Shown here piece by piece: positions 10,088 to 31,449 of a stretch of DNA of 64,000 nucleotides. The notes under the pieces were generated by a model that saw only the letters and a program-made list of their open reading frames with translations, ran no database searches and had not been told where the DNA came from. Position 1 is the stretch's first letter. Each line of letters starts with the position of its first letter. This DNA comes from a virus (taxonomy: Duplodnaviria; Heunggongvirae; Uroviricota; Caudoviricetes): IMG/VR virus record IMGVR_UViG_2541047715_000004. One strand, written 5' to 3'. Made by a program: the position numbers and the translations under genes.

Positions 10088-10104
10088 GAAAACAATTTGT
10101 TTTG
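10088..10104 (+). promoter_or_regulatory. conserved palindrome GAAAACAA-N-TTGTTTT (family 1)
   Basis: About 23-39 bp upstream of ATG 10127; recurs at 10817, 23557, 23608, 26416, 26900, 27804, 28568, 37428, 37455. Confidence 0.5.
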
Positions 10105-13010: not shown

Positions 13011-16000
13011 CTATATCTGCCCACCTACTCCTTTGAACTTTTCAATAAACGTGACGATTTTCTGGAAAACGGTCTGTTTTTTCGTTTTATATTGCGGGTT
13101 TAACGGACTAAGTTTTGGTAATGTCTCGTTTAATTCTGTGCCATTTTCGGTGGCGTATTCGCGTTTTAAAGACGTGCGAATATAGCGTTTCGCCGCCTCT
13201 TCATTGAGATTTTCTTCTTTTATCAATGCTTCTGCTTCACGTTGCTGTTCGCGTTGAGCAAACGTAAAGAATGCCTCAATGATACTGGCTTTGTCTGGTA
13301 AATCATCCAGGTTCGTTTGCTGAATAAAATCGACCACCAGGCCCTCTTTCGCCCGGTTCCCCAGGCTTGAACGAATTAAGCGTTTGACCTCTTCGATCAT
13401 TTCGCCCTTGCCTTTATTTTGTCTGTTGTGTTCGAAAATCAGTCCAAGGATATAATCCAGGTTTATTTCCTGAGACTTCAGCAAATCGACCTCAAAAACT
13501 ACGTCATCCCAGTCAGTGGTTGATTTCTCTTTTTTCTCAGCTTCTTTCTCACGGCGCTGCCAGTCGCGAATATCGTTATAGGCAGAACGATAATCCTGAA
13601 TCTTGCGTTCAGCAGGGAGACGAATTGTTTGCAATTCAGCGAACTTTTCATCATCCACATAATGTTCTGCTTTGAATTTTTCTACCGCAACAGGATCGCT
13701 AAGATCGATTTGTTGCAGGGCTTTCAGCGTGGCAAATTCATCATAGTTTTGCAGGATGTTCTCGGCACGCAGGTATTCACCAAACAGTTTTACGAAGTCT
13801 TTCTTCTCTTTTTCACTTTCAATACTGGCAGGGTCAGGGAACCGTTGTTCCAGTTCTGAAACTACTGCCATAAAGCCGCGTTTAGCTTCACCAGTGGCAG
13901 CATCTGTAAAGCCTTCCATATACTCAGCATAACTCTTTTCTAACACCACATTTTTAGTATTTTTATCACCAAACAGCGTTATGGCATCAATGGTTGAGCG
14001 TTCCAGATCCCGAAAAGTGACGATGTTACCGAAGGTTTTAGTAGCGTCATAAATGCGGTTGGTACGGGAGAATGCCTGCATCAGGCCGTGAAAACGCAAG
14101 TTTTTATCGACGAATAGCGTGTTCAATGTTGGAGCGTCGAAGCCGGTTAAAAACATCCCAACGACAATTAACAGATCGATATCCTGATTTTTAACCCGTT
14201 GGGCTAAATCACGATAGTAGTTCTGAAAACCGTTACTGTCGGTGCTGAAGTTAGTTTTAAAATAGCTGTTATACTCACGAATTGCAGCGTCAAGAAACTC
14301 TTTAGCACTGCTGTCCATTGCGCTGGTATCAAAAGTTTCATCGGAAATTTCACCAATGGCATTTTGTTCTTCATTGGCGGCAAAGGAGAAGATTGTTGCA
14401 ACACGCAGCGGTTTATAGGTAGCCGATTTATTAGCTGCTTCCTCTTGTAACCGTTTAAACGTCGCGTAATAGGCTTTCGCGGCATCCACGCTACTCACTG
14501 CCAGCATGGCATTAAAGCCTTTGGAACCTGGGAAAGTACGGTGGGTCTTCTGGCGGAAGTTATTCAGAATATATTGCGTAATTTCCTGTATACGCATGGG
14601 ATGAAGAAATGCCTGCTGATTTTCAGCCGCACTCAGTTTTTTCTCGTCGGTTTCTGTCTCTAAAGATTTAAACTGTGGCCGCACATCGTTGTAGTCCACC
14701 TTGAATTTGAGCACTTTTTCATCACGAATCGCATCGGTAATTACATACGAATGCAATTCACGACCAAATACGCTGGCGGTCGTTTCTGAGCCTAAGGCGT
14801 TTTCCGGGAAAATAGGTGTGCCGGTAAAACCAAACTGATAATAGCGTTTGAATTTCTTCTTCAGGTTTTTCTGCGCTTCTCCAAACTGGCTGCGGTGACA
14901 TTCATCAAATATAAACACCACTTGCTGATTGTATACAGGCAGGTCGCTTTCTGCTTTCATCAGGTTATTAAGTTTCTGAATAGTGGTGACGATAATTTTG
15001 TTATCGTCCTTATCCAGATTGCGTTTAAGACCTGCGGTATTTTCCGAGCCGTTGACGCTGTCTGGCGAAAAACGCTTATATTCATTCATGGTCTGGTAAT
15101 CGAGGTCTTTCCTGTCGACCACGAAGAAGACTTTATCAATAAAGTCCAGCTCTGTTGCCAGACGCGCGGCTTTAAAGCTGGTGAGGGTTTTACCTGAACC
15201 GGTAGTGTGCCAGATATACCCACCGCTTTCCGGTTTTGACCAGTTCTTCGCTGTAAAGGAACTCTTAATTTTCCACAGAATGCGCTCAGTGGCGGCAATC
15301 TGGTACGGTCGCATCACCAGTAGCGTTTGGCTAACATCGAATACGCTGTAGTTCACTAAGACATTAAGCAGGGTATGTTTCTGGAAAAAGGTGGCGGTAA
15401 AGTCTTTGAGGTCTTTAATCAGCGTGTTGTCTGATTTCGCCCAATTCATGGTGAAGTCAAAACTGTTTTTATCGCGCTTTGTCGTGTTGGCAAAGTAACG
15501 GGTATCGGTGCCGTTGGAAATGACAAACAGTTGCAGATACTTAAACAGAGAATTTTCGCTGTTAAAACTCTCTTTGCTGTAACGATGTATCTGGTTAAAG
15601 GCCTCACGAATCGCCACGCCGCGCTTTTTCAGTTCGATTTGTACCAGCGGTAAGCCATTAACCAGGATCGTGACGTCATAACGGTTAGCATGAGAACCCG
15701 TCTGTTCAAACTGCTGGATAATCTGCACCTTGTTGCGCATGAGATTCTTTTTATCTATCAAATAGATGTTCTCAAGACGCTCGTCATCAAAAATAAAGTC
15801 GCAAATATAGTCGATATGGATTTTACGGGTCTTATCCAGGATGCCATCGCTCGGGTTATCCAGATACTGCTCCGTGAAACGCCGCCATTCGCTGTCATTA
15901 AACACCACACCATTGAGGTTCTGAAGCTGTTCCCGAACGTTGGCCAGCATCGCCGACTGAGATTTTACGGAAATAAATTCATAGCCCTGATTCCGCAGAT

Positions 16001-16127
16001 CCTGAATCAGTTCACGTTCCAGGTCCGATTCGCTCTGGTAGCTGTCGCCTGTTTGCTCGGCTTTGATGTACTTATCAAGAACGATAAAGTTATTGGATTC
16101 AGCAATGGTGTGTGTCTGATGAGTCAT
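13011..16127 (-). CDS. hsdR: type I restriction enzyme R subunit, type IC (EcoR124-like)
   Basis: 1038 aa; Walker [13 protein letters not shown]-box FDECHRS, helicase motifs; N-terminus [20 protein letters not shown] matches my recollection of EcoR124 HsdR. Confidence 0.95.
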
Positions 16128-16248
16128 AGCGCATCCTTTGTGCCGTCTGGCAAGGGCCGGAAGGGCTTTAAGGGCGACTTCCGGCGTGTAAAAAATAGTC
16201 TCTATATAGACCGGATGTTAAGGTGATCCGGTCGGTAGCAATGGTCAA

Positions 16249-17496
16249 TTAGTTACTGATAGTTTCAGGTTTGGGAAAACTGAACAGTAAATCACGATAG
16301 TACTCGTATTGTTTCTGGCGCAACTCGATTTCACGCGGAAGACCTTCGGTGATGGAATTGGTCAAAGCATCAAATTTATCCAGTAATTTCACTATTTTTT
16401 GTTGTTCAACTAGCGATCTTTCAGGAGAATCAGGAAATGGTACTGGTATCATAAGTTTTCTTAAGTTATCATTATAAAGTCTTTTAATAGTTCCACCTTC
16501 AGATATTCCCCATTTTGCTATTTTATAGAAATAGAATAAATATTTATTTAAAACTATTTTTTCATTATTTTCAATCCAGACAATATTGCTATCCTGGAAA
16601 TATGATTCCCTACCATCAAATATAACAGTCCTGCCGATGGTCCCACTGGCAGAAATCAATACTTCGCCAACTTTAGGATAACTATATTTTTCTTTAAATT
16701 CATTAAATAGTTTTCTAGATATATAGGAATCGGGTTCCTTACCAAATGTCCCAATTTTATAAAATGGAATCTCTCCCTCAGAAGATGTTTGTGATTTTAG
16801 GATTCGTTTACACATACGAACTTCACCAATTTCCCCCAAAGCTTTCCACTCAACCTCACCCTCTTTAAAACTCAACAACTGGTCGCGATAGTAGTTGTAT
16901 TGTTTTTTACGCATGCTAAGCTCAGCGGTAAGCTCAGCGGTAAGTGCAGTAAATTTATCCAGAATCCTGACGATTTCAGACTGGATAGCCAGCGACTTTT
17001 CCGGGTTGTTGGGGCAAGGGATGGGGATAAGTAATTTACCTATATCTTTAGCATACAAATGATAAACAGTAGAACCTTTAACCATTTGCAATATCTTTTT
17101 TTTGTTATTTATTATGAAATTACTTAGATATCTACCATCAACACCAGAGCATCTAATAATCAAAATATCGCCGCCTAAAATAACGCCACTTTCTTGAATG
17201 CAACTAGCTGTAGCCAAACCTCTTGGTGTAACGTCTGACGTTGGCATTAGAACATCATTTTTTTCAGATAGAATTGACTCATTGATTGCTTGGTTTGTTT
17301 TTGAGCATACTTTGTCAATTATGGGACCATAATGAGTGAAAAGCTCACCGTAATGAATACAATATCTATTGCCATCTGGAGTTATTTTTTCTTTAGGTAA
17401 AGACTTCCCTTTTAAAAAAGTTGCTAATTTATTTAATGCTACCCACTCAACCTCAGCCCCATCCAGCAGTTTTTCCAGATAACTCAGCTCGCTCAT
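16249..17496 (-). CDS. hsdS: type I R-M specificity subunit, type IC with two divergent TRDs
   Basis: Conserved N-terminal, central ([29 protein letters not shown]) and C-terminal ([41 protein letters not shown]) regions; AT-rich variable TRDs. Confidence 0.95.
16918..16941 (-). repeat. 2 x 12-bp tandem repeat in hsdS central region, encoding TAEL-TAEL
   Basis: + strand AAGCTCAGCGGT twice, then a degenerate third copy. Confidence 0.85.
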
Positions 17497-19055
17497 GCCT
17501 GTACCTCGCTACCTTCAATCTCAGCAACAATCGCATCAATATCTTTACGCAACTGGTCGATTTTGCTGACCGTGGTTTTCAGCTCAGCATTCAGCTCAGC
17601 GATATCGATAATTTCGCGAGTATCTTTCGCTTCCACATAGCTGCTCACCGACAGGTTATAGTCATTCGCGACAACAGTCTCAAACGCAACAGATTTCGCC
17701 AGATGAGCAACATCTTCCTTGCTGGCAAATACCTGCATAATCTGTTCGATATGAGCATCGGTCAGAATGTTGTTGTTAGTCTCTTTTTTGAACAGTTCGC
17801 TGGCATCAATAAACTGAACTTTGGTATCCGTTTTATGTTTAGACAGCACCAGAATATTGACGGCAATAGTGGTGCCAAAGAACAGATTCGGTGCCAGTGA
17901 AATCACGGTTTCGACATAGTTATTGTCGACCAGATACTGACGGATTTTCTGCTCCGCGCCGCCACGGTAAAAAATGCCTGGGAAGCAGACAATCGCAGCG
18001 CGACCTTTGGCCGAAAGATAGTTCAGCGCATGTAATACAAACGCAAAGTCAGCTTTGGATTTGGGGGCCAGAACGCCAGCCGGGGCAAAACGTTCATCGT
18101 TAATCAGCGTCGGGTCATCGCTGCCAATCCATTTCACCGAATACGGCGGGTTAGAAACGATGGCATCAAACGGTTTTTCATCTCTGAAGTGCGGCTCAGT
18201 CAGTGTATTACCCAGCTTGATATCAAACTTGTCGTAGTTGATGTTGTGCAAAAACATGTTCATACGCGCCAGGTTATAGGTCGTATGGTTGATTTCCTGA
18301 CCAAAAAAACCTTCTTCGATGATATGGTCATCAAACTGTTTTTTCGCCTGCAACAACAGCGAACCGGAGCCTGCTGCCGGGTCGTAGATTTTGTTAACGT
18401 GGGTCTGCCCGTGCATAGCCAGTTGTGCAATCAGCTTAGAGACGTGCTGCGGTGTAAAGAACTCGCCGCCGGACTTACCGGCATTCGCCGCATAGTTAGA
18501 AATCAGGAACTCATAGGCGTCACCGAACAGGTCAATCTGATGTTCATGGAAGTCACCAAGTTTTAGCCCTTCAACCCCTTTCAGAACCGCAGCCAAGCGG
18601 GCATTTTTATCTTTAACGGTGTTACCCAGGCGGTTACTGGTGGTATCGAAATCAGCAAACAAACCTTTGATGTCAGCTTCTGAAGGATAACCGTAAGCAG
18701 AACTTTCGATAGCAACGAAGATGCTGTTTAAATCTGCATTCAGTCTGTCATTAGTATTTGCTTTCGCAGCTACGTTGCAGAAAAGCTGACTGGGGTAGAT
18801 GAAGTAGCCTTTAGTTTTGATGGCATCGTCTTTAATGTCATCAGTAATTACGCTGTCATCCAGTTTCGCATAACAGATACTGTCATCACCGGCTTCAATA
18901 TAACTGGAAAAATTTTCGCTGATAAAACGGTAAAAAAGCGCGCCCAAAACGTACTGCTTAAAATCCCATCCATCGACTGAACCCCTGACATCGTTAGCAA
19001 TTTGCCAGATCTGGCGATGAAGCTCTGCACGTTGTTGAATACTTGTCATTTTCAT
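17493..19055 (-). CDS. hsdM: type I R-M N6-adenine DNA methyltransferase subunit
   Basis: 520 aa; motif [14 protein letters not shown]; stop overlaps hsdS start (ATGA). Confidence 0.95.
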
Positions 19056-19407
19056 CCACTTATTTCAGGTTTAAGTAATTGGATGTGATTCTACAGCAAC
19101 TTGGATGCTTTAGCAGTTCGGACATTAGGTAACGAATGACCTAATTAGAGCTTTTTGGAAAAGCGGTATTGTCGGTGCGATTTTAGCTATGTCTGGGTGT
19201 GCGATGGTGCAATACAATGACGGTGAAAAGGTTAGCATCCAGTTCGATGGCTGGTATTGGCTTGGATAGCCTGCCAAAAAACGCAGATAAAGCCTGTCAG
19301 CAATACGGAAAGTCTAAAGCTGTATATCTGCATAGCGCGAACGCTAACCCTCATCTTGCGCCTGGTACGGGTGTTCAGAATACCATCTGGAAATGTGAGC
19401 CTTAAAC

Positions 19408-19659
19408 ATGAGCAACTGGAACATAGCAGCCAAAAGCCAGGAAGAAAGGAATAAAGTTAACGTTGACCTGGCTGCCAGGGGGGTTGCCTACAAAGAGCGA
19501 TTGAACATACCCGTCATAGCGGAACAGGTAGCCCGTGAGCAACCTGAGAACCTGCGCACCTATTTCATGGAACGGCTACGGCACTACCGGCAGTTAAGCC
19601 TCCTGCTGCCAAAAGGAAACGATCCGGTATATCAGAAAGAAGATATAGCCAAAAAATAA
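19408..19659 (+). CDS. hypothetical protein
   Basis: 83-aa ORF between hsdM promoter region and UmuD'-like gene. Confidence 0.4.
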
Positions 19660-19719
19660 CGCGCCACCAGACGAGCGCAAAGCATCGCGCTATTGCACAC
19701 TTCAAGCATCTTTAATGTA

Positions 19720-19739
19720 TACTGTATGGATAAACAGTA
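19720..19739 (+). promoter_or_regulatory. LexA operator (SOS box)
   Basis: TACTGTATGGATAAACAGTA fits CTGT-N8-ACAG; 19 bp upstream of ATG 19758. Confidence 0.65.
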
Positions 19740-19757
19740 CTCTGAGGTGAAAACGCT

Positions 19758-20147
19758 ATGGGCTTCCCTTCTCCTGCGGCGGATTATGCTGAGAGCCGTA
19801 TTTCTCTTGATCAGCAGATAATTAGACATCCTTCAGCGACCTACTTCATGAGGGCAGCTGATAGTCATCATCGTGAGGGAATATTACAGGGTGCATTGCT
19901 GGTGGTCGATTCCTCACTTACCCCGGTTGATGGTTCTCTGCTTGTATGCGCTCTGGATGGGGAATATCGCGTAAAAAGATACCGGAAGTACCCACGTCAG
20001 CATCTGGAGGATTTAAGAACCGGTAAGAAGGAAGCATTGCCAAAGGATGACGATGGATGCACGGGCAGCAATGCCGTGTTTGGTGTGATCACTCACATTA
20101 TCAACGACGCAAGAAGTGGCGAGTTTGATGATTGTCCCGTGATGTAG
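19758..20147 (+). CDS. UmuD'-like S24 peptidase-fold protein lacking the cleavable N-terminal arm (HumD-like)
   Basis: Starts MGFPSPAADY, equivalent to UmuD residue Gly25; Ser (ADS) and Lys (RVKRY) dyad positions conserved; GAGGTG RBS. Confidence 0.7.
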   Translation: MGFPSPAADYAESRISLDQQIIRHPSATYFMRAADSHHREGILQGALLVVDSSLTPVDGSLLVCALDGEYRVKRYRKYPRQHLEDLRTGKKEALPKDDDGCTGSNAVFGVITHIINDARSGEFDDCPVM

Positions 20148-20158
20148 GAGAACTGATT

Positions 20159-20184
20159 AGGCGGTGCAATGCACCGCCTTTTAT
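20159..20184. terminator. bidirectional terminator between convergent UmuD'-like gene and apbC
   Basis: AGGCGGTGCAATGCACCGCCT followed by TTTAT. Confidence 0.6.
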
Positions 20185-21284
20185 CACACTGCGCGGAATG
20201 CGATTTCGCCAGGTATTACTTCACCTTGCCAATACATTTGGGCGGCAACGCGATCTGCGAGGTCACGATAAATAGCCGTAAATTCGCTATCTGGACGACT
20301 AATAACGGTTGGTGTTCCGTTATCCAGATCTTCACGAAGAGAGATATGAAGTGGCATTTGGCCTAACAACTGCGTGTTGTATTTCTCGGCCAGTTTCTGT
20401 GCGCCACCGGTGCCAAAAATTGGCTCGTGATGACCGCAGTTACTGCAAATATGCACACTCATGTTTTCGACGATACCCAGTACCGGCACTTCGACTTTTT
20501 CGAACATCACAATGCCTTTCTTCGCATCGATCAGCGCGATGTCTTGCGGCGTAGTTACCACAACCGCACCAGTTACAGGAATGTTCTGCGCCAGCGTCAA
20601 CTGAATATCACCAGTGCCCGGCGGCATATCGAGAACGAGATAGTCCAGATCAGGCCATAGAGTTTCCTGCAACATCTGCATCAGCGCCTTGCTGGCCATC
20701 GGTCCACGCCACACCATTGCATTGTCGTCGGTGACCAGATAACCAATAGAGTTGGTTGCCAGGCCATGAGACATGATAGGTGCCATGTGAGTACCGTCAG
20801 GTGAGGTTGGACGTTGGTTTTCCGCGCCCAGCATGGTTGGAATTGATGGACCATAGATATCGGCATCCAAAATACCAACTTTCGCACCTTCAGCAGCCAA
20901 CGCCAGTGCCAGGTTTACCGCCGTGGAGGATTTACCCACGCCGCCCTTGCCTGAGCTGACGGCGATAATGTTCTTAACGCCATTAATGCCTGGTTGGTTT
21001 TTGACGCGCTTAAGCGTGGCAATGTTGTACGACAGCTTCCAGTCAATAGCCTTTGCGCCAGTGATACGGAGCAGATCACCACTACATTGCTCTTTCAGGT
21101 CTTCAAAAGGCTTATTCCACACGAAAGGCATGATTAGTTCGACATGCAGTGTGTCATCCATCAACGCAACATGGTGTAACGCTTTAAGCGTAGTCAGGTT
21201 GTGTTTCAGGGTTGGGTGCTGAAAATTAGCCAGCGTACCGGCTACCATTGCTCTCAGGGCATCCGGCGATTTGGACTCGCTCAT
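20184..21284 (-). CDS. apbC: Fe-S cluster carrier ATPase ApbC/Mrp
   Basis: 366 aa, GKGGVGKS P-loop; near-identical to E. coli Mrp as I recall it. Confidence 0.95.
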   Translation of the reverse strand: MSESKSPDALRAMVAGTLANFQHPTLKHNLTTLKALHHVALMDDTLHVELIMPFVWNKPFEDLKEQCSGDLLRITGAKAIDWKLSYNIATLKRVKNQPGINGVKNIIAVSSGKGGVGKSSTAVNLALALAAEGAKVGILDADIYGPSIPTMLGAENQRPTSPDGTHMAPIMSHGLATNSIGYLVTDDNAMVWRGPMASKALMQMLQETLWPDLDYLVLDMPPGTGDIQLTLAQNIPVTGAVVVTTPQDIALIDAKKGIVMFEKVEVPVLGIVENMSVHICSNCGHHEPIFGTGGAQKLAEKYNTQLLGQMPLHISLREDLDNGTPTVISRPDSEFTAIYRDLADRVAAQMYWQGEVIPGEIAFRAV

Positions 21285-21441
21285 CCCGTCTCCTTTATTT
21301 TAATTTGCGCAATTGTCGCCTTGTAGTGTACTCCAGCTACGACATTTAATCATTTATGAGAAATGCTGTTATCACATGGCAGACATAAGGCCATTTTGTT
21401 ACTATCAAGCCCCTTTTCACTACAAAGAAGTAATGCCTACT

Positions 21442-23475
21442 ATGACCCAAGTCGCGAAGAAAATTCTGGTGACGTGCGCGCTGCCGTACGCTAACGGCTC
21501 AATCCACCTCGGCCATATGCTGGAGCACATCCAGGCTGATGTCTGGGTTCGTTACCAGCGAATGCGCGGCCACGAGGTTAATTTCATCTGTGCCGACGAT
21601 GCCCACGGTACGCCGATCATGCTGAAAGCACAGCAGCTTGGTATCACACCGGAGCAGATGATTGGCGAAATGAGTCAGGAACACCAGACTGATTTCGCAG
21701 GCTTTAACATCAGCTATGACAACTATCACTCGACGCACAGCGAAGAGAACCGCCAGCTGTCTGAGCTTATCTATACTCGCCTGAAAGAGAACGGTTTTAT
21801 TAAAAACCGCACTATCTCTCAGTTGTACGACCCGGAAAAAGGCATGTTCCTGCCGGATCGTTTTGTGAAAGGCACCTGCCCGAAATGTAAAGCGCCAGAT
21901 CAATACGGCGATAACTGTGAAGTCTGCGGCGCAACATATAGCCCGACTGAATTGATCGAGCCGAAATCGGTGGTTTCTGGCGCTACCCCGGTAATGCGTG
22001 ATTCCGAACACTTCTTCTTTGATCTGCCTTCTTTCAGCGAAATGTTGCAGGCATGGACCCGCAGCGGCGCGTTGCAGGAGCAGGTGGCGAACAAAATGCA
22101 GGAATGGTTTGAATCCGGCCTGCAACAGTGGGATATCTCCCGAGATGCGCCTTACTTCGGTTTTGAAATTCCGAACGCGCCGGGCAAATATTTCTACGTC
22201 TGGCTGGACGCGCCGATTGGCTACATGGGTTCCTTCAAGAATCTGTGCGACAAACGCGGCGACACTACCAGCTTCGACGAATACTGGAAGAAAGACTCCA
22301 CCGCCGAGCTGTACCACTTCATCGGTAAAGATATCGTTTACTTCCACAGCCTGTTCTGGCCTGCCATGCTGGAAGGCAGCAACTTCCGCAAGCCGACCAA
22401 CCTGTTTGTTCACGGCTATGTGACGGTGAACGGCGCGAAGATGTCCAAGTCTCGCGGCACCTTTATTAAAGCCAGCACCTGGCTGAATCATTTTGACGCC
22501 GACAGCCTGCGTTACTACTACACTGCGAAACTCTCTTCGCGCATTGATGATATCGATCTCAACCTGGAAGATTTTGTTCAGCGCGTGAATGCCGATATCG
22601 TGAACAAAGTGGTTAACCTGGCCTCCCGTAATGCAGGTTTTATCAACAAACGTTTTGACGGCGTGCTGGCAAGCGAACTGGCTGACCCGCAACTGTACAA
22701 AACCTTCACTGATGCCGCTGAAGTGATTGGTGAAGCGTGGGAAAGCCGCGAATTTGGCAAAGCTATCCGTGAAATCATGTCACTGGCTGACCTGGCTAAC
22801 CGCTATGTTGATGAACAGGCTCCGTGGGTGGTGGCGAAGCAGGAAGGCCGCGATGCCGACCTGCAGGCGATTTGCTCTATGGGCATTAACCTGTTCCGCG
22901 TGCTGATGACGTACCTGAAACCGGTACTGCCGAAACTGACTGAACGTGCAGAAGCATTCCTGAATACAGAACTGACCTGGGATGGTATCCAGCAACCGCT
23001 GCTGGGCCATAAAGTGAATCCGTTCAAGGCACTGTATAACCGTATCGATATGAAACAGGTGGAAGCACTGGTGGAAGCATCCAAAGAAGAAGTGAAAGCC
23101 ACAGCTGCACAGGTAACTGGCCCACTGGCTGACGACCCGATTCAGGAAACCATCACCTTTGACGACTTCGCCAAAGTTGACCTGCGTGTGGCGCTGATTG
23201 AAAACGCGGAGTTTGTCGAAGGTTCTGACAAACTGCTGCGTCTGACACTGGATCTCGGTGGTGAAAAGCGTAATGTCTTCTCAGGCATCCGTTCTGCTTA
23301 TCCAGACCCACAGGCACTGATTGGTCGTCACACCATTATGGTGGCTAACCTGGCTCCGCGTAAAATGCGCTTCGGTATCTCCGAAGGCATGGTGATGGCT
23401 GCTGGCCCCGGCGGGAAAGATATCTTCCTGTTAAGCCCGGATGCTGGTGCTAAACCAGGCCACCAGGTTAAGTAA
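21442..23475 (+). CDS. metG: methionine--tRNA ligase
   Basis: 677 aa from ATG 21442; HLGH and KMSKS motifs; near-identical to E. coli MetG as I recall it; divergent from apbC as in E. coli. Confidence 0.95.
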
Positions 23476-24310: not shown

Positions 24311-24880
24311 ATGGATGTGATGGAAACCCAGAACCAACAAACAAAACCTCTGAATAACATTTATGCGTGGATTCTAGCGTTCATGCCTTTCTTCTTTGGA
24401 GTATCGCCGGAAGAGTATACCAATTACGCTATTATAATTGGGGGTGTAACTACCATCGGTTTGTTAGTAGCTGACAGAATGGCTCTATCGGAGTCTGGCT
24501 GTGAACCACCTTCAATTCTATGGGGGGTATTCCTCCTGCCTGTCTATCTCTGGAAGCGCGCGACTATTACAAAAGGCAGCAGAGTGCCATTTATCATAAT
24601 CGTTGCGTCGCTGGCTTGGATTATCTTCATCGGCATCCCACACAAGGACGAGGTTGCTCTTGAAGAAGCAGCCTGCCCTCTCGTGACAACTATTCTGAAA
24701 GAGAATAACGGTTCGACTGCACCAAAATGTATGAAGGTGACAATAGAGGACAAGGTGACGGATAAGTTCTATAGAGCAACGGCTACACTAGACAATGGTA
24801 ATGACATTAACATTACTCTGGAACTTACCGGCGACAGGAACTTCTACGTCCGTGTTCCAAATGTTTATCTGAACAACTAA
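24311..24880 (+). CDS. hypothetical integral membrane protein
   Basis: Several hydrophobic helices. Confidence 0.45.
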   Translation: MDVMETQNQQTKPLNNIYAWILAFMPFFFGVSPEEYTNYAIIIGGVTTIGLLVADRMALSESGCEPPSILWGVFLLPVYLWKRATITKGSRVPFIIIVASLAWIIFIGIPHKDEVALEEAACPLVTTILKENNGSTAPKCMKVTIEDKVTDKFYRATATLDNGNDINITLELTGDRNFYVRVPNVYLNN

Positions 24881-25949
24881 CGGTTGTAACTTATTGATAA
24901 TGGCGGTCACAATTTGATTCTTTTCTATAAGAATCCGTTGATCGCCACTACTCCCCTACCATGCCCGCAATCACATCCTTAAATATCAATAAGTTATAGT
25001 TGTTTATACAATCAAGAAAACAACTGAATAACAGATCAACGAAACATCAACGCTTTCACCCGATTTGGTCTAAAAAATTGACGTTTTCACACATCACTGC
25101 TTATACCCGTAATTCTACACAGCAGACAGCGCCACAGCGTCCAATTTTCACCACAGACGACCCAACACACTACCAACAAAAACACATGCTCAAAATCGTT
25201 CCCGTTGCGTTACATAACCATATAAACAACTTATTTTCAGGCATAACAAAACAACTAAATAACACATATGCCATTCCCAAAACAACCAACCTCGTTATGG
25301 CAGGCTACCGAAAAGACCCACCTCTTCTTCCCAGGCTACCGGACAACCAACCTAACTTTCACAGGCAATCCGAAAACATTCATACGCGCGATACCCACGA
25401 CACGCCATTACCCAAACAGCGAAGAAACACCAGAATCACTGAAACCCCAACGAAGCCTGTAACCGCAAGGTTTCTCTCAATCCCAAAAGACACGAAGCAT
25501 AACAATCACGGGAAACGCCATTACCCAATACACGAATAACTACAAAAGCCTTTCACACACTCCAGACAAACAACTCAAACACAATAACGAAAGGAATCGC
25601 CCACCTGCCATTACTCCATACACGGAGAAGAACAATCACCAAAACGACGAGAACACCCCATAGAAGAACCACCGCAAAACTAACGAAACCACATACACCG
25701 ACAGAGAAAACAACACACCCAATTCACCAACAGAAATAGTCGCCGTATAGAACGTTCTGGAAGGAGTGAGCATTAACGCCTATAGAGAGGTTGAGACAGA
25801 TAAAACACGAAGAAAACACAACATGTATAGCGAAGAAGCCAGGTATGTATAAGTGGGGAGGGAAGGAGGGGTGTCGCCTCCTTTTTCGTATTTATTCAAC
25901 TCCTGATTTTATCCCCCGTAAAACCCCTACGGTCAGCCTTCGGTCCATA

Positions 25950-26085
25950 CAGGGAAAAGGTTGCATCCCGCTACAGAAACGGCTGGGTTGCCTTCGGGGA
26001 ACGGCTGGAGGTTTTCAGGGAAACGGTCGAGTTGCCTGTGTGGATTTCGGGAGAAGGCTCGATGCCGGTTCAGGAACGGTGGAGT
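25950..26085 (+). repeat. iteron-like direct repeats (consensus about GGGAAACGGCTGG), 5-6 copies at about 22-bp spacing
   Basis: cagggaaaaggttgc, cagaaacggctgg, cggggaacggctgg, cagggaaacggtcga, cgggagaaggctcga, caggaacggtgga. Confidence 0.6.
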
Positions 26086-26415
26086 ACCGGTATAGCGAGA
26101 GGGAGAGTTGCGGCTATCCACCTGTAATCTGCGGGAAGAAGAGTGGCGCTCACGTGCAGGCGGACTAACTTACCGTTGGACTCCCTCTGAATGCCCAGTT
26201 ACAGCGTAATTGTGCCAGACAGCCAACGGGTCACAATCGATTTCAGTAGGTTTTCGGGGAGATGATTATTCTGCCCACCAGCCACCTTCGGCCACTAAAT
26301 CAGAATAATGTAAAAAGTGTTCTCGGTACTGAACCTGAAAACTCACTGCCAAAACCACATTCACCGGAATAAAATCCTTTTTCGCCTGTGCGTTATTGCG
26401 ATAATAACACCATCA

Positions 26416-26434
26416 AGAAAACATGTTGTTTAAG
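26416..26434 (+). promoter_or_regulatory. family 1 palindrome (GAAAACATGTTGTTT)
   Basis: Upstream of ATG 26444. Confidence 0.45.
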
Positions 26435-26443
26435 GATTGCTTT

Positions 26444-26773
26444 ATGTTTGCAAATATCGACATCAACCAAATCAAGAAATTGACTCAAAAAGAGTTTGAC
26501 CAGTTCTATGAGCTGGAAGGTTGGTCTTCCACTCTGATCAATTCGCGGTGGGTGCTTGAGCTGATGACTCGTGATGACGCACCTGCTTTGATGATTTGCG
26601 ACATGGGTGAAGATGCTGACTTTATGGATATGAGCGAATTTTGTGTGGACACATACAACCGCAGCCAGAAGTACTACTTCACATGCGATAGCGAGAATGA
26701 CGTGATTTCTAAGGTCTATCTTCACCTTGTCCAGCATTGGGACGTTCAGGAGTTTCTTGAAGTATTCGAGTAA
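26444..26773 (+). CDS. hypothetical protein
   Basis: ATG 26444 with AAGGA RBS; earlier ATG in track lies inside the palindrome. Confidence 0.45.
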   Translation: MFANIDINQIKKLTQKEFDQFYELEGWSSTLINSRWVLELMTRDDAPALMICDMGEDADFMDMSEFCVDTYNRSQKYYFTCDSENDVISKVYLHLVQHWDVQEFLEVFE

Positions 26774-26783
26774 ACCTAACCAA

Positions 26784-26806
26784 AGCCAGCATTGCTGGCT
26801 TAATTT
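26784..26806 (+). terminator. putative terminator
   Basis: AGCCAGCATTGCTGGCT followed by TAATTT. Confidence 0.4.
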
Positions 26807-26899
26807 CTCTATAGCCGCAGGGAAGAACCTGCATATCGCTCATGCACCTGATCATTATGCTTTGTAGCCGTTTTCTTACTGGTATTATTTACGCCATTG

Positions 26900-26916
26900 A
26901 GAAAACAAGTTGTTTA
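26900..26916 (+). promoter_or_regulatory. family 1 palindrome (GAAAACAAGTTGTTT)
   Basis: Upstream of ATG 26927. Confidence 0.45.
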
Positions 26917-26926
26917 CGGAGTTGTG

Positions 26927-27238
26927 ATGAAAAAATCATTGGTTCTTGGTCTGGACAAAGACCAGAAGAGAAAAGAGAAGCCTGCGCTGGTTGCTCAATT
27001 AACTTTGCTGGACATCGTTGCCAATGGAACCTCTATTCGTCTGTTCCGTGAAACAGCGGTGTCTTTCGATAAAAACACCTTTACTCGTTATGTAATGAAT
27101 GTTCGTCGCCAGCGTGGAAAAGGCTGGATGGCATTTCAAAGAATGTGGCCGGAACATCAGCTCGAACTGGCTTTGATGGAAGTTAACCGCGTGGCCCAGC
27201 AAGAAATTCAGAGAGCATCAGTGATGGCAATAGCCTGA
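26927..27238 (+). CDS. hypothetical protein
   Basis: ATG 26927; track start at 26897 is TTG inside the palindrome. Confidence 0.45.
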   Translation: MKKSLVLGLDKDQKRKEKPALVAQLTLLDIVANGTSIRLFRETAVSFDKNTFTRYVMNVRRQRGKGWMAFQRMWPEHQLELALMEVNRVAQQEIQRASVMAIA

Positions 27239-27271
27239 TAATGTGCAAGTGGTAATTAGTCGACAGTACGA

Positions 27272-27300
27272 CAGCCCCGCCATCCTTACGGGGCTTTTTT
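27272..27300 (+). terminator. rho-independent terminator
   Basis: AGCCCCGCCATCCTTACGGGGCT followed by TTTTTT. Confidence 0.65.
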
Positions 27301-27364
27301 GTATTGTAAGTACATACTTACGATCATAGAATATAAAAATAACCAATACACTACGGAGAGTGAA

Positions 27365-27760
27365 ATGACCGTTAAACGCGAAAAACTGACTGTTGATGTT
27401 TACTATGCCTCTGAAACCGCCGAAGGTAAGAATGTGGCAAAAATCACCGTTGTTACGTACAACACCGAAACTGGTGCCGAAGTACAGGCCAGTACGATCG
27501 TGCGTAAAGGTGATGCCTCCGGCGGCGAGTACGCGACTCAATACCAGTCCATTCTCGATGCAACTGACCCGCTGCTGCTGAAAATCGAGAACTACTTCCG
27601 CCAGGTTGATGAAGAGGTGTTTGAAACCATGATGAATATGGTTAACACCGTATTCGCCTCCAACCTGAATACCAACACTACCTGGATTGGTCAGTACGGC
27701 CTGCGCATTACCTCTGGCATTCCTGCCGACACCTTAATCCCTGAAAGCGTATTCGCTTAA
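27365..27760 (+). CDS. hypothetical protein
   Basis: ATG 27365 with GGAGAG RBS. Confidence 0.45.
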   Translation: MTVKREKLTVDVYYASETAEGKNVAKITVVTYNTETGAEVQASTIVRKGDASGGEYATQYQSILDATDPLLLKIENYFRQVDEEVFETMMNMVNTVFASNLNTNTTWIGQYGLRITSGIPADTLIPESVFA

Positions 27761-27769
27761 TCCTCTTTA

Positions 27770-27796
27770 AATGGCGCGTAAACCGCGCCATTTTAT
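27770..27796 (+). terminator. rho-independent terminator
   Basis: AATGGCGCGTAAACCGCGCCATT followed by TTATT. Confidence 0.6.
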
Positions 27797-27803
27797 TAAG
27801 CCC

Positions 27804-27820
27804 GATAACAATTTGTTTTC
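27804..27820 (+). promoter_or_regulatory. family 1 palindrome (AACAATTTGTTTTC)
   Basis: Upstream of ATG 27878. Confidence 0.45.
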
Positions 27821-27877
27821 TGCCTTATCTGATTTGTGAAAATGATTTCACTGAAGCAACTTAATAAGGAAACCATC

Positions 27878-28252
27878 ATGGGACTTGATATCTATATCGA
27901 GACACAGCCTAAAAACGATCTGAATAACGAGGCATCCAGAAAGCAGGTTGCTTACTTCCGTAAGTTCAATGCGCTCGTTGGGTGGATGGAGCGCAACGTA
28001 GGTGAAGTCGAAAATTGTGAGCTTTTAGAATTAACGATGAATGACATTTGTTTTCTGAAGGCTCATTTGATGCACATAAACGAAAGCAATTGCGAAGAGT
28101 ACTTGCCTACCCGGGAAGGTTTTTTCTTCGGCAGTCAGGAGTACGATGAAGGTTACTGGCATGACGTGGATAAGCTGAAAAAACTTGTGGAAGACCTGAT
28201 CAGGAACCACGACTTTCACAATAACAGACTGACCTTCTGCGCCTGGTGGTAA
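27878..28252 (+). CDS. hypothetical protein
   Basis: ATG 27878 with AAGGAAACC RBS. Confidence 0.45.
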   Translation: MGLDIYIETQPKNDLNNEASRKQVAYFRKFNALVGWMERNVGEVENCELLELTMNDICFLKAHLMHINESNCEEYLPTREGFFFGSQEYDEGYWHDVDKLKKLVEDLIRNHDFHNNRLTFCAWW

Positions 28253-28567
28253 ATATGGGCGATTTCAAGAAACGCCTGAAGGAAAGAGCCGAGATGGTCA
28301 GAAAGCAAAACGCCTCTTCTGTCATCAGATACGCAAGGCAGTTTAGTCGCAACAACAAATCAGTTGAGGAAAAGATCCTTAGCGTAATCGTGCGATAATT
28401 ATTAAGGCCATCAGCATTGGTGGCCTTAAATGACCATCTTGTTTCCCGCAGGCTAAAAACACCAACCTCTTACCTCCAGGCAACCGACAAACCCACCTGT
28501 TCCCGTCCGGCTACCGCAACTTTCCACTTTGACGCCTTATTCGTACAACGATAATTAACGCCAACAA

Positions 28568-28581
28568 GAAAACAATTTGTT
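28568..28581 (+). promoter_or_regulatory. family 1 palindrome (GAAAACAATTTGTT)
   Basis: 22 bp upstream of ATG 28603. Confidence 0.45.
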
Positions 28582-28602
28582 ATTTACGATAAGGAATTAA
28601 TC

Positions 28603-29085
28603 ATGAATTTTATCGCTACTGTAAACGCACCCGCACATGGCAATATCGCTGTAACGTTCTCTGACATTGAAAAACGAGTACTTGGTGCATGGCGCGACAA
28701 TGAGACGGTAGAACTGTCAGCACAAGAAAAATGCATTATTGCACGCGACATCATTGGCAATCGTCGTTACTCGCGGGTATTTGAGAAAGCGTATGTGGTA
28801 AATTCTGGATTCGGAACGTTCGTCTTTCCGGTGCGCTCCGGGCGATTCTGCCAGTCCAAGCTGATTGAGTTCGCTACGCAGATTTCTGTCTGGATTAAAA
28901 CTCAATCGTCGTTCAAATTTTCCGACGATGAAGCAGTATCGCAGGGGATGCGGATCGCCAACAATGCGATTAAATGCAAAAACATTACGTATACCGCTGG
29001 CGTTGATACATGGAAACTGTTTTGCGCTAACTTTATGCTGAATGTATACGCAAGCAACCGCATCCACATCCTTGATGGCGTGTAA
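28603..29085 (+). CDS. hypothetical protein
   Basis: 160-aa ORF with AAGGAA RBS. Confidence 0.5.
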   Translation: MNFIATVNAPAHGNIAVTFSDIEKRVLGAWRDNETVELSAQEKCIIARDIIGNRRYSRVFEKAYVVNSGFGTFVFPVRSGRFCQSKLIEFATQISVWIKTQSSFKFSDDEAVSQGMRIANNAIKCKNITYTAGVDTWKLFCANFMLNVYASNRIHILDGV

Positions 29086-29093
29086 CTGAGAAG

Positions 29094-29117
29094 AGGGCCA
29101 GAAACGGCCCTTTCTCT
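29094..29117 (+). terminator. putative terminator
   Basis: GGGCCAGAAACGGCCC followed by TTTCTCT. Confidence 0.5.
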
Positions 29118-29133
29118 ATAGCCACCAGCTGCC

Positions 29134-29214
29134 GCAGGGAAATTTTCAGAAACGGCGAGGAACGTATTCATGAGCCGACGGGGAACGGCCAGGATTTTTT
29201 CGGGAAACGGCTGC
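29134..29214 (+). repeat. second iteron-like cluster (GGGAAACGG family)
   Basis: cagggaaatttt, cagaaacggcgagg, gaggaacgtattc, cggggaacggccagg, cgggaaacggctgc. Confidence 0.55.
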
Positions 29215-29701
29215 ATTCGCCTTTATGTAGAAAAAACATCGGGAAGCTGGTGGAATCCAACCAGCGGTTGTCGGACAGGTGAGCGGGGAAAATTATGATG
29301 ACTTTCGTCGCCTGAGACATCCAGATTTCTTTCGTAGCGTAATCACATATGTGATTAAGTGGTGTGATTATGTGAAAAATCACGCGCACATAATACGAGA
29401 GCGGATACGGAACAAAACAAAATGCCGATCCGCGCCGACAATTAAACGCGGATCACATAGCAAGAATAAAAGCCAATGATTAACCATACACCATAACGCA
29501 ATATAACGCGATTTAAGCGCGTTAATGCGCTAAGTAATGGGTATGTACTGGTAAGGATATAAAAGCGCGTCTATGGCGTTATTTTGGCGCTTATTTTTAT
29601 GTTGTTGGTGTGAGTCAAAGACAATAAAAAAAGCGCCATCATTGGCGCGTTATGGTGGAAGTATTGGAAACGAAAAAAGCGCCCATAGTGGGCGCTCGAT
29701 T

Positions 29702-30927: not shown

Positions 30928-31449
30928 TTAAAACGGAAGGATTCGTTCAACCCAATCGAAGAAAATAAGTATTTTTCTACCGTCTTCCAACTTAAGTGTG
31001 ACTAGACAGGCGTCAACGCCATCTGACGTTCCCTCAATTTCGCGACCGTCTGCCATGTAGACCCTTATAGATTTGCCGTTTTGGTAAGCCTGACGACATA
31101 TCTTAAAAAAGTCACGACGTGATGGCTGATTAACCATCTGTTCATTGTTTAGCGTTAGTCGACCTGTGAATGAAGTGTCAACCTCTTCTATGCCCGACTC
31201 AATTGTGCTAATGCGCTCAAGAGGGAGCCTTATACGATTTGTGTTGCTAAGCGGATCTGGTGTGAGGTTCAGCTTATTTCTTGCGCTCAATAGCCCGTAG
31301 ACATACATGCAAAACACTTGGCCGTCTTCGAGAGTGACTCTTACAGGAAATTTTGCACTCCGCCAGAAGAGCAAGGTGCGCTCAGCATGTTCGTAGTCTC
31401 GCGGCCAGACTTCAGCCGGTATGCCGTAGGTGATGTCCAATGTTCTCAT
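30928..31449 (-). CDS. hypothetical protein
   Basis: 173-aa ORF, overlaps upstream gene by 4 nt. Confidence 0.45.
   Translation of the reverse strand: MRTLDITYGIPAEVWPRDYEHAERTLLFWRSAKFPVRVTLEDGQVFCMYVYGLLSARNKLNLTPDPLSNTNRIRLPLERISTIESGIEEVDTSFTGRLTLNNEQMVNQPSRRDFFKICRQAYQNGKSIRVYMADGREIEGTSDGVDACLVTLKLEDGRKILIFFDWVERILPF

Follow-up and report, generated by a model that had tools for sequence, protein, structure and literature searches.

Why does one strand of a phage-plasmid keep a high content of A and C and a low content of G over almost a kilobase that encodes no protein? The question is raised by a tract at 24900-25790 of a 64,000-nucleotide (nt) stretch of DNA (IMG/VR record IMGVR_UViG_2541047715_000004, Caudoviricetes; hereafter, the window), which a first-pass annotation had singled out for its strand asymmetry and repeats. 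The window is assigned to the SSU5/pHCM2-type phage-plasmids of Escherichia coli, near phage Cyrano. Its region 24800-26400 shared 99.3% identity with plasmid NZ_CP062914.1 of E. coli and 97.6% with Escherichia phage Cyrano, and was matched in 243 of 5426 complete E. coli genomes, in plasmids every time and never in chromosomes. The tract is real and conserved: in SSU5/pHCM2-type phage-plasmids it forms about 0.9 kb of non-coding sequence, A/C-rich and G-poor on the top strand. Our answer is tentative, and we give it clearly less than an even chance: the tract would yield a rightward, untranslated and unstructured transcript with more C than G (C>G), and would act as an oversized zone of Rho loading and termination that insulates the early genes. 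No description of the region was found in the searchable literature on SSU5, pHCM2, phage-plasmid origins, non-coding RNAs (ncRNAs) or transcriptomes.

The base composition of the tract was determined on the + strand. Positions 24900-25790 contained 38.3% A, 29.9% C, 13.4% G and 18.5% T, giving an A+C content of 68%. The top 800-nt segment, starting at 24951, reached 70.5% A+C (z=+7.0 against all 800-nt segments of the 64 kb; runner-up, z=3.1). The G content fell to a minimum of 12%, compared with a mean of 24.4% for the window; the + strand had been called almost devoid of G, which overstates the case, as G is halved and not absent. The GC skew ranged from -0.32 to -0.53 across the tract and the AT skew climbed from +0.08 to +0.59, both stopping sharply near 25790. 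The G+C content of the tract was 37-50%. The extreme strand asymmetry was thus confirmed by sliding-window analysis as the strongest outlier in the 64 kb. Composition, the C>G bubble described below, the homologues and the tests for coding delimit the tract as 24871-25790 on the + strand.

We examined whether the tract could encode a protein. An open reading frame (ORF) at 25000-25539 (179 aa, TTG start) exists as had been listed, but its frame is peculiar to the sequence of the window. A single inserted nucleotide at 25275 breaks it in most relatives, further indels of 1-2 nt are frequent, and the open frames of the tract differ even between relatives at 95% identity. The 83 variable sites in the 179-aa ORF were evenly split among the codon positions (31/25/27; p=0.71), and no 3-nt periodicity was detected in the tract. 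The Prokaryotic Genome Annotation Pipeline (PGAP) placed no gene in the tract in 13 of 14 RefSeq/PLSDB records, the exception being one 153-nt minus-strand ORF in C. freundii. No ORF of the tract was conserved among the relatives. A protein-coding gene was therefore rejected on the grounds of frames that are not kept, frameshifting indels and an even codon-position split, in agreement with the initial view that the tract has no credible coding capacity.

Conservation was assessed in 14 annotated, 67 IMG/VR and 6 GTDB loci, and in alignments of 15 and 54 homologues of the tract. A total of 836 PLSDB plasmids carried the homologous gap (428 from Klebsiella, 224 from Escherichia, 90 from Enterobacter, 49 from Salmonella and the rest from Citrobacter, Cronobacter and others), and it was also present in SSU5 and Klebsiella phages, with 67-72% identity outside the E. 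coli clade. In each of the homologues examined (>80), the same strand had 63-78% A+C, even where identity was as low as about 59%. The length, position and composition of the tract and many of its sequence blocks were kept across at least eight genera, about 46% of positions were invariant among four clade consensus sequences, and its divergence resembled that of the neighbouring genes. The asymmetry and the repeats are thus both real and conserved among related genomes. A search for distant relatives based on UvsW returned six loci. The tract was present in four of them, and Yersinia pestis pMT1 and a metagenome-assembled genome had none within reach. The plasmid pMT1, which also lacks the repeat cluster A described below, replicates as a plasmid regardless, indicating that the tract is dispensable for plasmid maintenance.

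We next considered whether the bias arises by mutation or is selected. Polymorphisms within the E. coli clade were polarised with the other clades as outgroup, and 32 changes led away from A/C whereas 11 led toward it. This ratio is close to that of unbiased mutation of a sequence with 70% A+C and unlike the 1:1 of mutational equilibrium. A mutational origin of the skew, such as the deamination known from mitochondrial DNA, is contradicted by this asymmetry. Since the bias persists in clades of 59-68% identity while mutations erode it, selection appears to restore and maintain the A+C bias of the tract. A strand bias is invisible in duplex DNA, yet this one is kept over 750 nt; it therefore points to a single-stranded product, most simply a transcript.

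Some relatives carry the tract in altered form. Three loci (L005, L022 and L069) form a "mid" clade with about 75% identity to the window, in which ~25100-25290 follows the SSU5-type consensus and ~25300-25650 the E. coli type; this mosaic suggests past recombination inside the tract. Large hybrid Klebsiella plasmids of IncFIB/IncU type, namely L011 (Klebsiella pneumoniae p3IncF, 190 kb) and the hits H86-H92 and H96, retain no more than the first ~450 bp of the tract, which a rearrangement has truncated.

A structured ncRNA had been proposed as one function of the tract. The 781-nt + strand RNA had a minimum free energy of -119.6 kcal/mol (-0.153 per nt), no different from shuffled sequences (z=-0.2), and the - strand RNA of the tract gave z=+2.1. 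Among 850 segments of 300 nt from both strands of the 64 kb, the mean folding energy was -80 ± 13 kcal/mol, and the four weakest folders, at -34 to -38 kcal/mol, all came from the + strand of the tract. The Rfam covariance models gave no match to the tract at gathering thresholds; at E<=5 there was a single match at chance level (DUF3800-VIII, E=0.75), on the - strand and outside the tract. No tRNA or tmRNA was found in the tract. A global RNA fold was rejected, there being no signal on either strand, and the long-range pairings tried were no better than shuffles. Pairing of the downstream G-cluster with the 31-nt repeats was also rejected: the best site often lay there, yet its energy was no better than that of shuffles. 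Covariation was restricted to the terminal hairpin, with one compensatory pair. Neither curved DNA nor 10.5-bp phasing was detected in the tract. These results do not bear out a structured ncRNA; the RNA of the tract is the least structured in the window.

An unfolded, untranslated RNA with more C than G is what Rho-utilization (rut) sites offer, and the tract shows all three features. The C>G bubble was measured with a 78-nt sliding window by the method of Nadiras et al. 2018 (PMC6144790). It comprised 842 window starts over 24871-25790, with an area of 15229 and a mean C-G of 18%, and was the largest in the 64 kb on either strand, its area being 4.6x that of the next on the + strand (3310) and 2.75x that of the largest on the - strand (5535). 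CA, AAC, ACA and CAC were enriched 2-4 fold in the tract, and GG, GT, GTG and GGT were depleted. Such motifs, bubble length and area, and weak folding were among the best discriminators of Rho-termination strength in vitro in the study of Nadiras et al., in which the signs of the descriptors are given only for G-rich motifs (PMC6144790). Since no translation shields the RNA, Rho would be expected to load on rightward transcripts. The promoter-like elements, the cassette and the terminator-like hairpin of the tract all lie on the + strand, in the direction of the favoured reading.

Published RNA-seq data were consulted in the log2 FPKM (fragments per kilobase per million mapped reads) table for E. 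coli LF82 carrying Cyrano, with ten samples in five conditions and counts of unstated strandedness (PMC9928086). The features of this table cover the first ~360 nt of the tract, and the body at 25357-25845 lies under no annotated feature. CYRAN_102, just upstream of the tract, had values of 5.6-9.2 (PMC9928086). CYRAN_103 (~25000-25356 of the window), 111 nt past CYRAN_102, had values of 2.32-4.27 in ten of ten samples, where 2.32 is the lowest value in the retrieved rows and was taken as the floor of the table. The terminator scan found no intrinsic terminator between CYRAN_102 and the tract. As the signal is high in CYRAN_102 and near the floor in CYRAN_103 with no terminator in between, read-through would stop or decay at the start of the tract. 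Values remained low in CYRAN_104 (~25846-26250; 2.6-4.7) and reached 7.5-7.8 in CYRAN_105, the first early gene (PMC9928086). These results suggest that the RNA of the tract is not abundant in lysogens and that the early genes are driven independently.

Taking these observations together, we infer rightward transcription of the body, Rho action and an insulator role. The tract would be a conserved non-coding leader or spacer, read rightward as nearly all genes of the element are, in which selection would keep the + strand A/C-rich and G/T-poor, so that the RNA could not fold on itself and would present a single C>G bubble of ~0.9 kb. Transcripts may enter from the variable cargo genes at the left or begin at a cassette-type promoter at ~25200-25238. 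Rho would load on the rightward RNA, unshielded by ribosomes, and would halt transcripts inside the tract or at the G-cluster hairpin at 25855-25887. This would insulate the array of G-rich repeats and the block of early genes, which has its promoter at ~26385-26433. The repeats around GCCATTAC and the 31-nt repeats probably bind some factor, such as a modulator of termination.

Several points weigh against a Rho-loading zone. A rut site needs a length of ~80 nt, and 0.9 kb with ~46% invariant positions far exceeds the needs of termination; elsewhere the phage uses compact intrinsic terminators. Regularly spaced YC dimers, a further Rho descriptor, are not enriched: the longest (YC)N9-13 chain had 4 members compared with a mean of 5.3 in random segments, and the YC density was ordinary (0.106, compared with 0.094 on one strand of the window and 0.116 on the other). 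T is depleted and A is enriched, neither of which Rho loading needs. In Klebsiella-type relatives, the adjacent upstream gene is divergent and points away from the tract, so protection against read-through can account for the tract only in part. Rho loading leaves the GCCATTAC and 31-nt repeats unexplained, and the proposed -10 elements are weak. The LF82 table spans just the first ~360 nt of the tract and is perhaps not strand-specific. The Rho dependence of the tract is a prediction.

The tract begins with a conserved 5' block (24885-25110, + strand), which the alignments define as the left edge of synteny. The genes to its left vary among relatives, with at least six different neighbours, and so the 5' block marks the border between a hyper-variable cargo region and the conserved early-gene block. 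Five CGTTGAY/RTCAACG motifs lie within 200 bp, at ~24890 (degenerate in the window), 24936-24942, 25035-25041, 25046-25052 and 25078-25083. The block also holds the invariant TTTCTATAAGA...CGTTGATCGCC and, at 25014, AAGAAAACAA. Behind an A-tract is a promoter-like TTGACG (25078-25083), 18 nt, TATACC (25102-25107), with a position weight matrix score of ~8 in all clades and a weak -10 element without the final T. The block shows further symmetries. A perfect 13-nt inverted repeat, TAACTTATTGATA / TATCAATAAGTTA, lies at 24887-24899 and 24984-24996, 84 nt apart; each arm fits the consensus for integration host factor (IHF), WATCAANNNNTTR, and the arms belong to the E. coli clade and are not kept in SSU5- and Klebsiella-type sequences. 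CTTATAC at 25100-25106 and GTATAAG at 25847-25853 form an inverted pair around the G-poor body, and a third TATAAG box at 24926-24931 lies inside the invariant TTTCTATAAGA. In the Klebsiella clade the pair reads TTATAT/ATATAA, with both sides changed; L016 breaks the pattern, and the helix extension is weak. The boxes may be -10-like elements, binding sites for a protein or the arms of a long-range helix.

A promoter and palindrome cassette with no ORF behind it lies within the tract at 25200-25255 on the + strand, identified by motif matches and kept in four clades. It comprises a conserved TCCCGTTGCGTTAyAT followed by TAAACAAsTTrTTTTC at 25223-25238, and it is likely the start of a + strand non-coding transcript. 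The cassette recurs genome-wide as a -10-like GATAAT, an A/C-rich TAACACCAACAAG and a 15-nt palindrome AAAACAAnTTGTTTT. Matches to the palindrome motif numbered 15 in the window, where 0.9 were expected, and 19 in Cyrano (L083/L084/L002), where the expectation was 0.65. Cassette sites in the window were at 10088, 10817, 23558, 23609, 25223, 26417, 26901, 28566, 37430 and 37456 on the + strand; such sites usually lie 10-40 nt 5' of start codons (in Cyrano, nearly all), often with a second palindrome ~50 bp upstream, right after an intrinsic terminator.

Two families of repeats follow on the + strand. Three tandem 31-nt repeats (ACCCACCTCTTnnnCCCAGGCTACCGAAAAG) at 25277-25368, absent from the first-pass annotation, were kept in all clades. 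The unit is gained and lost whole (insertion at 25304 in L017 and L043, deletion at 25285 in L048), so that its copy number differs even among close relatives. The second family, at 25403-25635, has the core cGCCATTACyCcAtACACGGAGAAgAAC in the same orientation at 25403, 25516 and 25606. Of these, the first two contain the exact CGCCATTACCCAA and the third a variant of it, and there is a weaker copy at 25269. These had been described as repeats of ~100 bp; the repeats are real, but their cores are ~30 nt long and lie 113 and 90 nt apart, and Tandem Repeats Finder reported no tandem array. The 8-mer GCCATTAC has just two further occurrences in the 64 kb, both strands combined, and the repeats that carry it are present in 3-6 same-orientation copies across relatives, with six in the SSU5 type. 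Conservation in the tract peaks in the core at 25598-25652, the sole part that megablast finds in SSU5. A further motif, AACAATCAC, said to appear several times, occurs twice (25501 and 25631) and is not significant alone. The G-poor body ends in a conserved 3' box, AATAGTCGCCGTATAGArCG, defined by alignments at 25735-25760 on the + strand.

Downstream of the body, the terminator scan and the alignment identified a composite element at 25846-25887 (+ strand), consisting of the GTATAAG box, the G-cluster GGGGAGGGAAGGAGGGG (25855-25871) and a purine/pyrimidine hairpin (25860-25886). The G-cluster was kept in five of the six representatives scanned. In an alignment of 31 distinct sequences, the hairpin showed one compensatory A-U<->G-C pair and several G-C<->G-U pairs, and a U-rich tail follows it in the E. 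coli and Klebsiella clades, making it terminator-like. The G-cluster at 25855-25862 also contains GGGGAGGG, which fits the FtsK-orienting polar sequence (KOPS) motif GGGNAGGG; the SSU5-clade GGGAAGGG fits it as well and the Klebsiella clade does not. The match is probably a coincidence.

Beyond the hairpin lie the G-rich, iteron-like direct repeats of cluster A (GGGAAAmGGCTGG; 25952-26095, + strand), which are kept in SSU5-type loci. The iteron cluster that had been placed downstream of the tract is thus real: GGGAAACGGCTGG-like units start at 25952, 25974, 25996, 26018 and 26049, with spacings of 22, 22, 22 and 31 bp. Cluster B, with the same G-rich repeats, lies 3.1 kb downstream (29100-29215, + strand) and is kept in SSU5-type loci and Y. 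pestis pMT1. Repeat arrays of ~17-22 bp at helical-phase spacing are therefore found beside the tract, in these two clusters, and not inside it. The clusters bracket five small early genes (26423-29085), all belonging to PHROG families of unknown function. Searches of Pfam, PHROGs and PDB sequences gave no initiator candidate among the neighbouring genes, and a basic neighbour protein of 103 aa was not Rep-like (AlphaFold pLDDT 77.6; best Foldseek E=0.12). By analogy with ori/crr of P4, clusters A and B could be a second, lytic origin with its partner in cis, or looping operators. The first early gene has a cassette promoter of its own at 26385-26433 on the + strand (GATAAT, AACACCATCAAG and the palindrome GAAAACATGTTGTTTAA), which shows that the early genes are independent of transcription through the tract.

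Other explanations of the tract were weighed against the Rho-loading zone. It may instead encode a trans-acting early ncRNA of ~650 nt, running from the cassette promoter at ~25200-25238 to the conserved hairpin and left unfolded so that its repeats are exposed; we consider this unlikely. The exposed GCCAUUAC... and 31-nt units, or the bulk A/C-rich strand, would then be a decoy or scaffold for a factor that binds single-stranded RNA, and Rho itself, ribosomal protein S1, an endoribonuclease and a phage protein were considered as partners. The tract does resemble a defined unit, a standard phage cassette without an ORF plus a conserved terminal hairpin, and its extreme unfoldedness, its 3-6 conserved same-orientation repeats and the selection on a single-strand property all fit such an RNA. 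However, in none of five conditions did LF82 lysogens give more than very few reads over its first ~130 nt, an unprotected Rho-sensitive transcript would be short-lived, and every partner tried failed (GcvB, Hfq, CsrA, the cassette leader, and the fliC leader with FljA). A GcvB sponge was rejected, as complementary 7- and 8-mers were neither enriched nor conserved; (ARN)n runs were not enriched, which excluded an Hfq sponge, and GGA (6 vs 5.9 expected) and AGGA (2 vs 2.4) excluded a CsrA sponge. An array of degenerate cassette leaders was rejected because leader-like sites were not enriched in the body, and ACCCAATAC, common to the tract and the E. coli fliC leader, was at chance level, so that a target of the FljA-like protein encoded at 30928-31449 was rejected too. 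A role in replication, as an origin-associated region of unwinding or priming, had been suggested at the outset too. Part of a lytic origin could lie here, where rightward RNA through the G-poor stretch would form a stable R-loop at the G-cluster (25855-25871) and the 22-bp repeats and serve as a primer, or where the tract would be the zone between the start of the leading strand and the first priming site of the lagging strand; we regard this as quite unlikely. An R-loop-type G-cluster directly follows 750 nt of G-poor sequence and is in turn followed by 35-39% G, just under the usual R-loop criterion of 40%; the cluster is present in five of six representatives and lies downstream of a predicted promoter. 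The iteron-like repeats with 22-bp spacing form two clusters 3.1 kb apart, the AT skew rises toward the right end of the tract, and pMT1 shows that the tract is unneeded for plasmid replication. The element encodes a T4-like replication and recombination set, namely a helicase, a primase, Pol III alpha, UvsY, a gp32-like single-stranded DNA-binding protein (SSB), a RecA/UvsX-like protein, RNase H and UvsW. RNA-based prophage origins also exist in mycobacteriophages (PMC7157519). On the other hand, no DnaA box and no A+T-rich unwinding element were found in 24800-26450, where the only AT-rich patch is at 24970-25020. No initiator is recognisable among the neighbours, a purely mutational skew is contradicted by the 32:11 ratio, and the cumulative GC skew showed no replication-related switch at the tract, the + strand having G>C almost throughout the genome. 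R-loop models account for the G-rich part, not for the 750 nt of G-poor sequence. An origin of the plasmid RepA at the tract was rejected, as RepA lies >30 kb away and its iterons, CTCTCTATAGTGGATA, differ from those of clusters A and B.

We judge it similarly improbable that the tract acts as double-stranded DNA, with CGTTGAY, the palindrome, the 31-bp units and GCCATTAC being operators or titration sites for phage regulators, as a sink or a looping partner for the early region, and the strand bias being a by-product of asymmetric sites in the same orientation. There are several distinct, conserved and oriented repeat families, the 31-bp unit, whose copy number varies, corresponds to three helical turns, the palindrome recurs as a regulatory motif throughout the genome, and five CGTTGAY motifs fall within 200 bp. 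However, a uniform and selected A+C bias extends over ~750 nt of the body, of which the repeats make up less than a third, there is no 10.5-bp phasing, and sites like the cassette leader are not enriched in the body. The protein-binding array proposed at the outset is thus plausible for the repeats only; a double-stranded array fails to explain 750 nt of selected strand bias. That the tract is a decayed remnant, left by recombination of promoter cassettes or by a dead gene and shaped by mutation bias, is very improbable. The degenerate cassette without a gene, the adjoining hyper-variable cargo region and the internal recombination suggested by the mid clade (L005, L022 and L069) would agree with decay, but the tract is conserved in length, position, composition and blocks in at least eight genera and 836 plasmids, diverges like the neighbouring genes, has mutations that oppose its bias and retains no surviving coding signature. 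A bolder proposal, which we likewise think unlikely, is a dedicated gene for a structure-free A/C-rich ncRNA of ~0.65-0.9 kb, expressed on induction from the cassette promoter and bearing the GCCAUUAC and 31-nt repeats, or a G-cluster R-loop that primes lytic replication. As an ncRNA gene, its bulk single-strandedness would soak up Rho or another host factor that binds or cleaves RNA, so that long one-directional operons are read through. Rho loading and termination within the tract thus remains our preferred, though tentative, interpretation.

The tract lies in a 1.5-kb gap without a PGAP-annotated gene, between ORFs at 24311-24880 and 26423-26773. Apart from the replication set, the element encodes a plasmid RepA with its own iterons, ParA and siphovirus structural genes, and nearly all genes, including those flanking the tract, are on the + strand. 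The cargo region at 13011-23475 carries a Type I restriction-modification system (hsdR, hsdS and hsdM; hsdS is frameshifted in a near-identical RefSeq plasmid), a homologue of DNA Pol III theta, a LexA-like peptidase of the S24 type and the apbC-metG pair, which is thus present in a second copy besides the chromosomal one. At 30928-31449 on the - strand, the phage-plasmid encodes a protein homologous over its full length to the phase-1 flagellin repressor FljA (Pfam PF03614, E=1.4e-68), and lysogenic conversion of host flagellin expression may be possible. Dense TGTGAT/ATCACA palindromes (e.g. ATCACATATGTGAT) occupy 29300-29400, in a 0.9-kb intergenic region between the early genes and leftward regulator genes, and three intrinsic-terminator-like hairpins with the common core GCGCCCATAGTGGGCGC lie downstream of them. 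There are 14 Chi sites in the 64 kb, with nothing special at the tract.

Together with the G-cluster hairpin and the 22-bp repeats, the tract forms a well-defined, unannotated and conserved non-coding module of 1.5 kb. SSU5/pHCM2-type phage-plasmids are common in clinical Enterobacteriaceae and carry resistance and other cargo, and the tract was found in 836 PLSDB plasmids. If it is a Rho insulator, it would account for the ability of these elements to take in any actively transcribed cargo while their lytic genes stay off, and it would be an unusually long natural sequence selected against RNA structure. If it is a decoy RNA or a priming zone instead, it would represent a new type of element in phage regulation or replication, and an ncRNA gene or R-loop primer would be a new phage RNA element that hundreds of plasmids from clinical Klebsiella, E. 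coli, Enterobacter and Salmonella carry.

The features of the tract can be compared with those of known systems. Vertebrate mitochondria have an A+C-rich L strand and a G+T-rich H strand, caused by deamination of a strand that is long exposed as single-stranded DNA. The tract shares the pattern of all four bases, with A and C raised and G and T lowered on one strand, and the AT-skew gradient, but its new mutations oppose the bias (32:11), indicating selection. The sponge RNAs CsrB/CsrC and the prophage AgvB present many exposed copies of a short motif. The tract likewise has repeated, exposed short motifs in a non-coding stretch, whereas GGA, ARN and GcvB-target motifs are not enriched, its length is several times greater, and its RNA is not abundant in lysogens. 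Promoter-early stem-loop (PeSL) cassettes of T4-type phages stand before many small genes in plastic regions, and resemble the promoter and hairpin cassette of this phage, one copy of which lies inside the tract. The likeness is confined to the cassette, as the body of the tract is not a cassette array.

A closer parallel in layout is found in the untranslated immunity leaders of P4 (seqA/seqB/seqC and CI RNA) and P1/P7 (c4-ant), which contain short direct repeats upstream of lytic genes. In P4 and P1/P7, premature and partly Rho-dependent termination silences the lytic genes, and the leaders act by complementary pairing between RNA repeats. The tract is also a long non-coding region with direct repeats in a phage-plasmid. 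Unlike in P4 and P1/P7, no conserved complementary partner was found, an 8-nt match at 24897-24904 being specific to the E. coli clade, and no small processed RNA was found here; those leaders are also not known to have such a composition bias. Like R-loop origins (ColE1 RNA II, T4 oriF/oriG and the mitochondrial light-strand promoter and conserved sequence block II, LSP-CSB II), the tract has a predicted promoter, several hundred non-coding nucleotides and a G-cluster on the non-template strand, and the element encodes RNase H and UvsW. It differs from them in that the element has a RepA/iteron origin elsewhere and that the RNA is not folded like RNA II. In contrast to the RNA of cluster A mycobacteriophages, which is expressed in lysogeny (PMC7157519), that of the tract barely rises above the detection floor, if at all, in lysogens.

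The preferred reading, a Rho-loading and termination zone, rests on the likeness to Rho-dependent terminators and their rut sites, such as lambda tR1 and trp t', and to the silencing of prophages and foreign DNA by Rho. Here, too, a CA/AAC/ACA/CAC-rich and GG/GT-poor stretch is followed by a pause or hairpin region. In contrast to rut sites, the tract is ~10x longer, is A-rich and T-poor and not pyrimidine-rich, has no enrichment of spaced YC dimers, and carries conserved repeat families and promoter-like elements of its own; a role for Rho is proposed here from the sequence. Compared with these systems, the tract is best filed as an unusually long, repeat-bearing form of the C>G, unstructured, Rho-type untranslated region.

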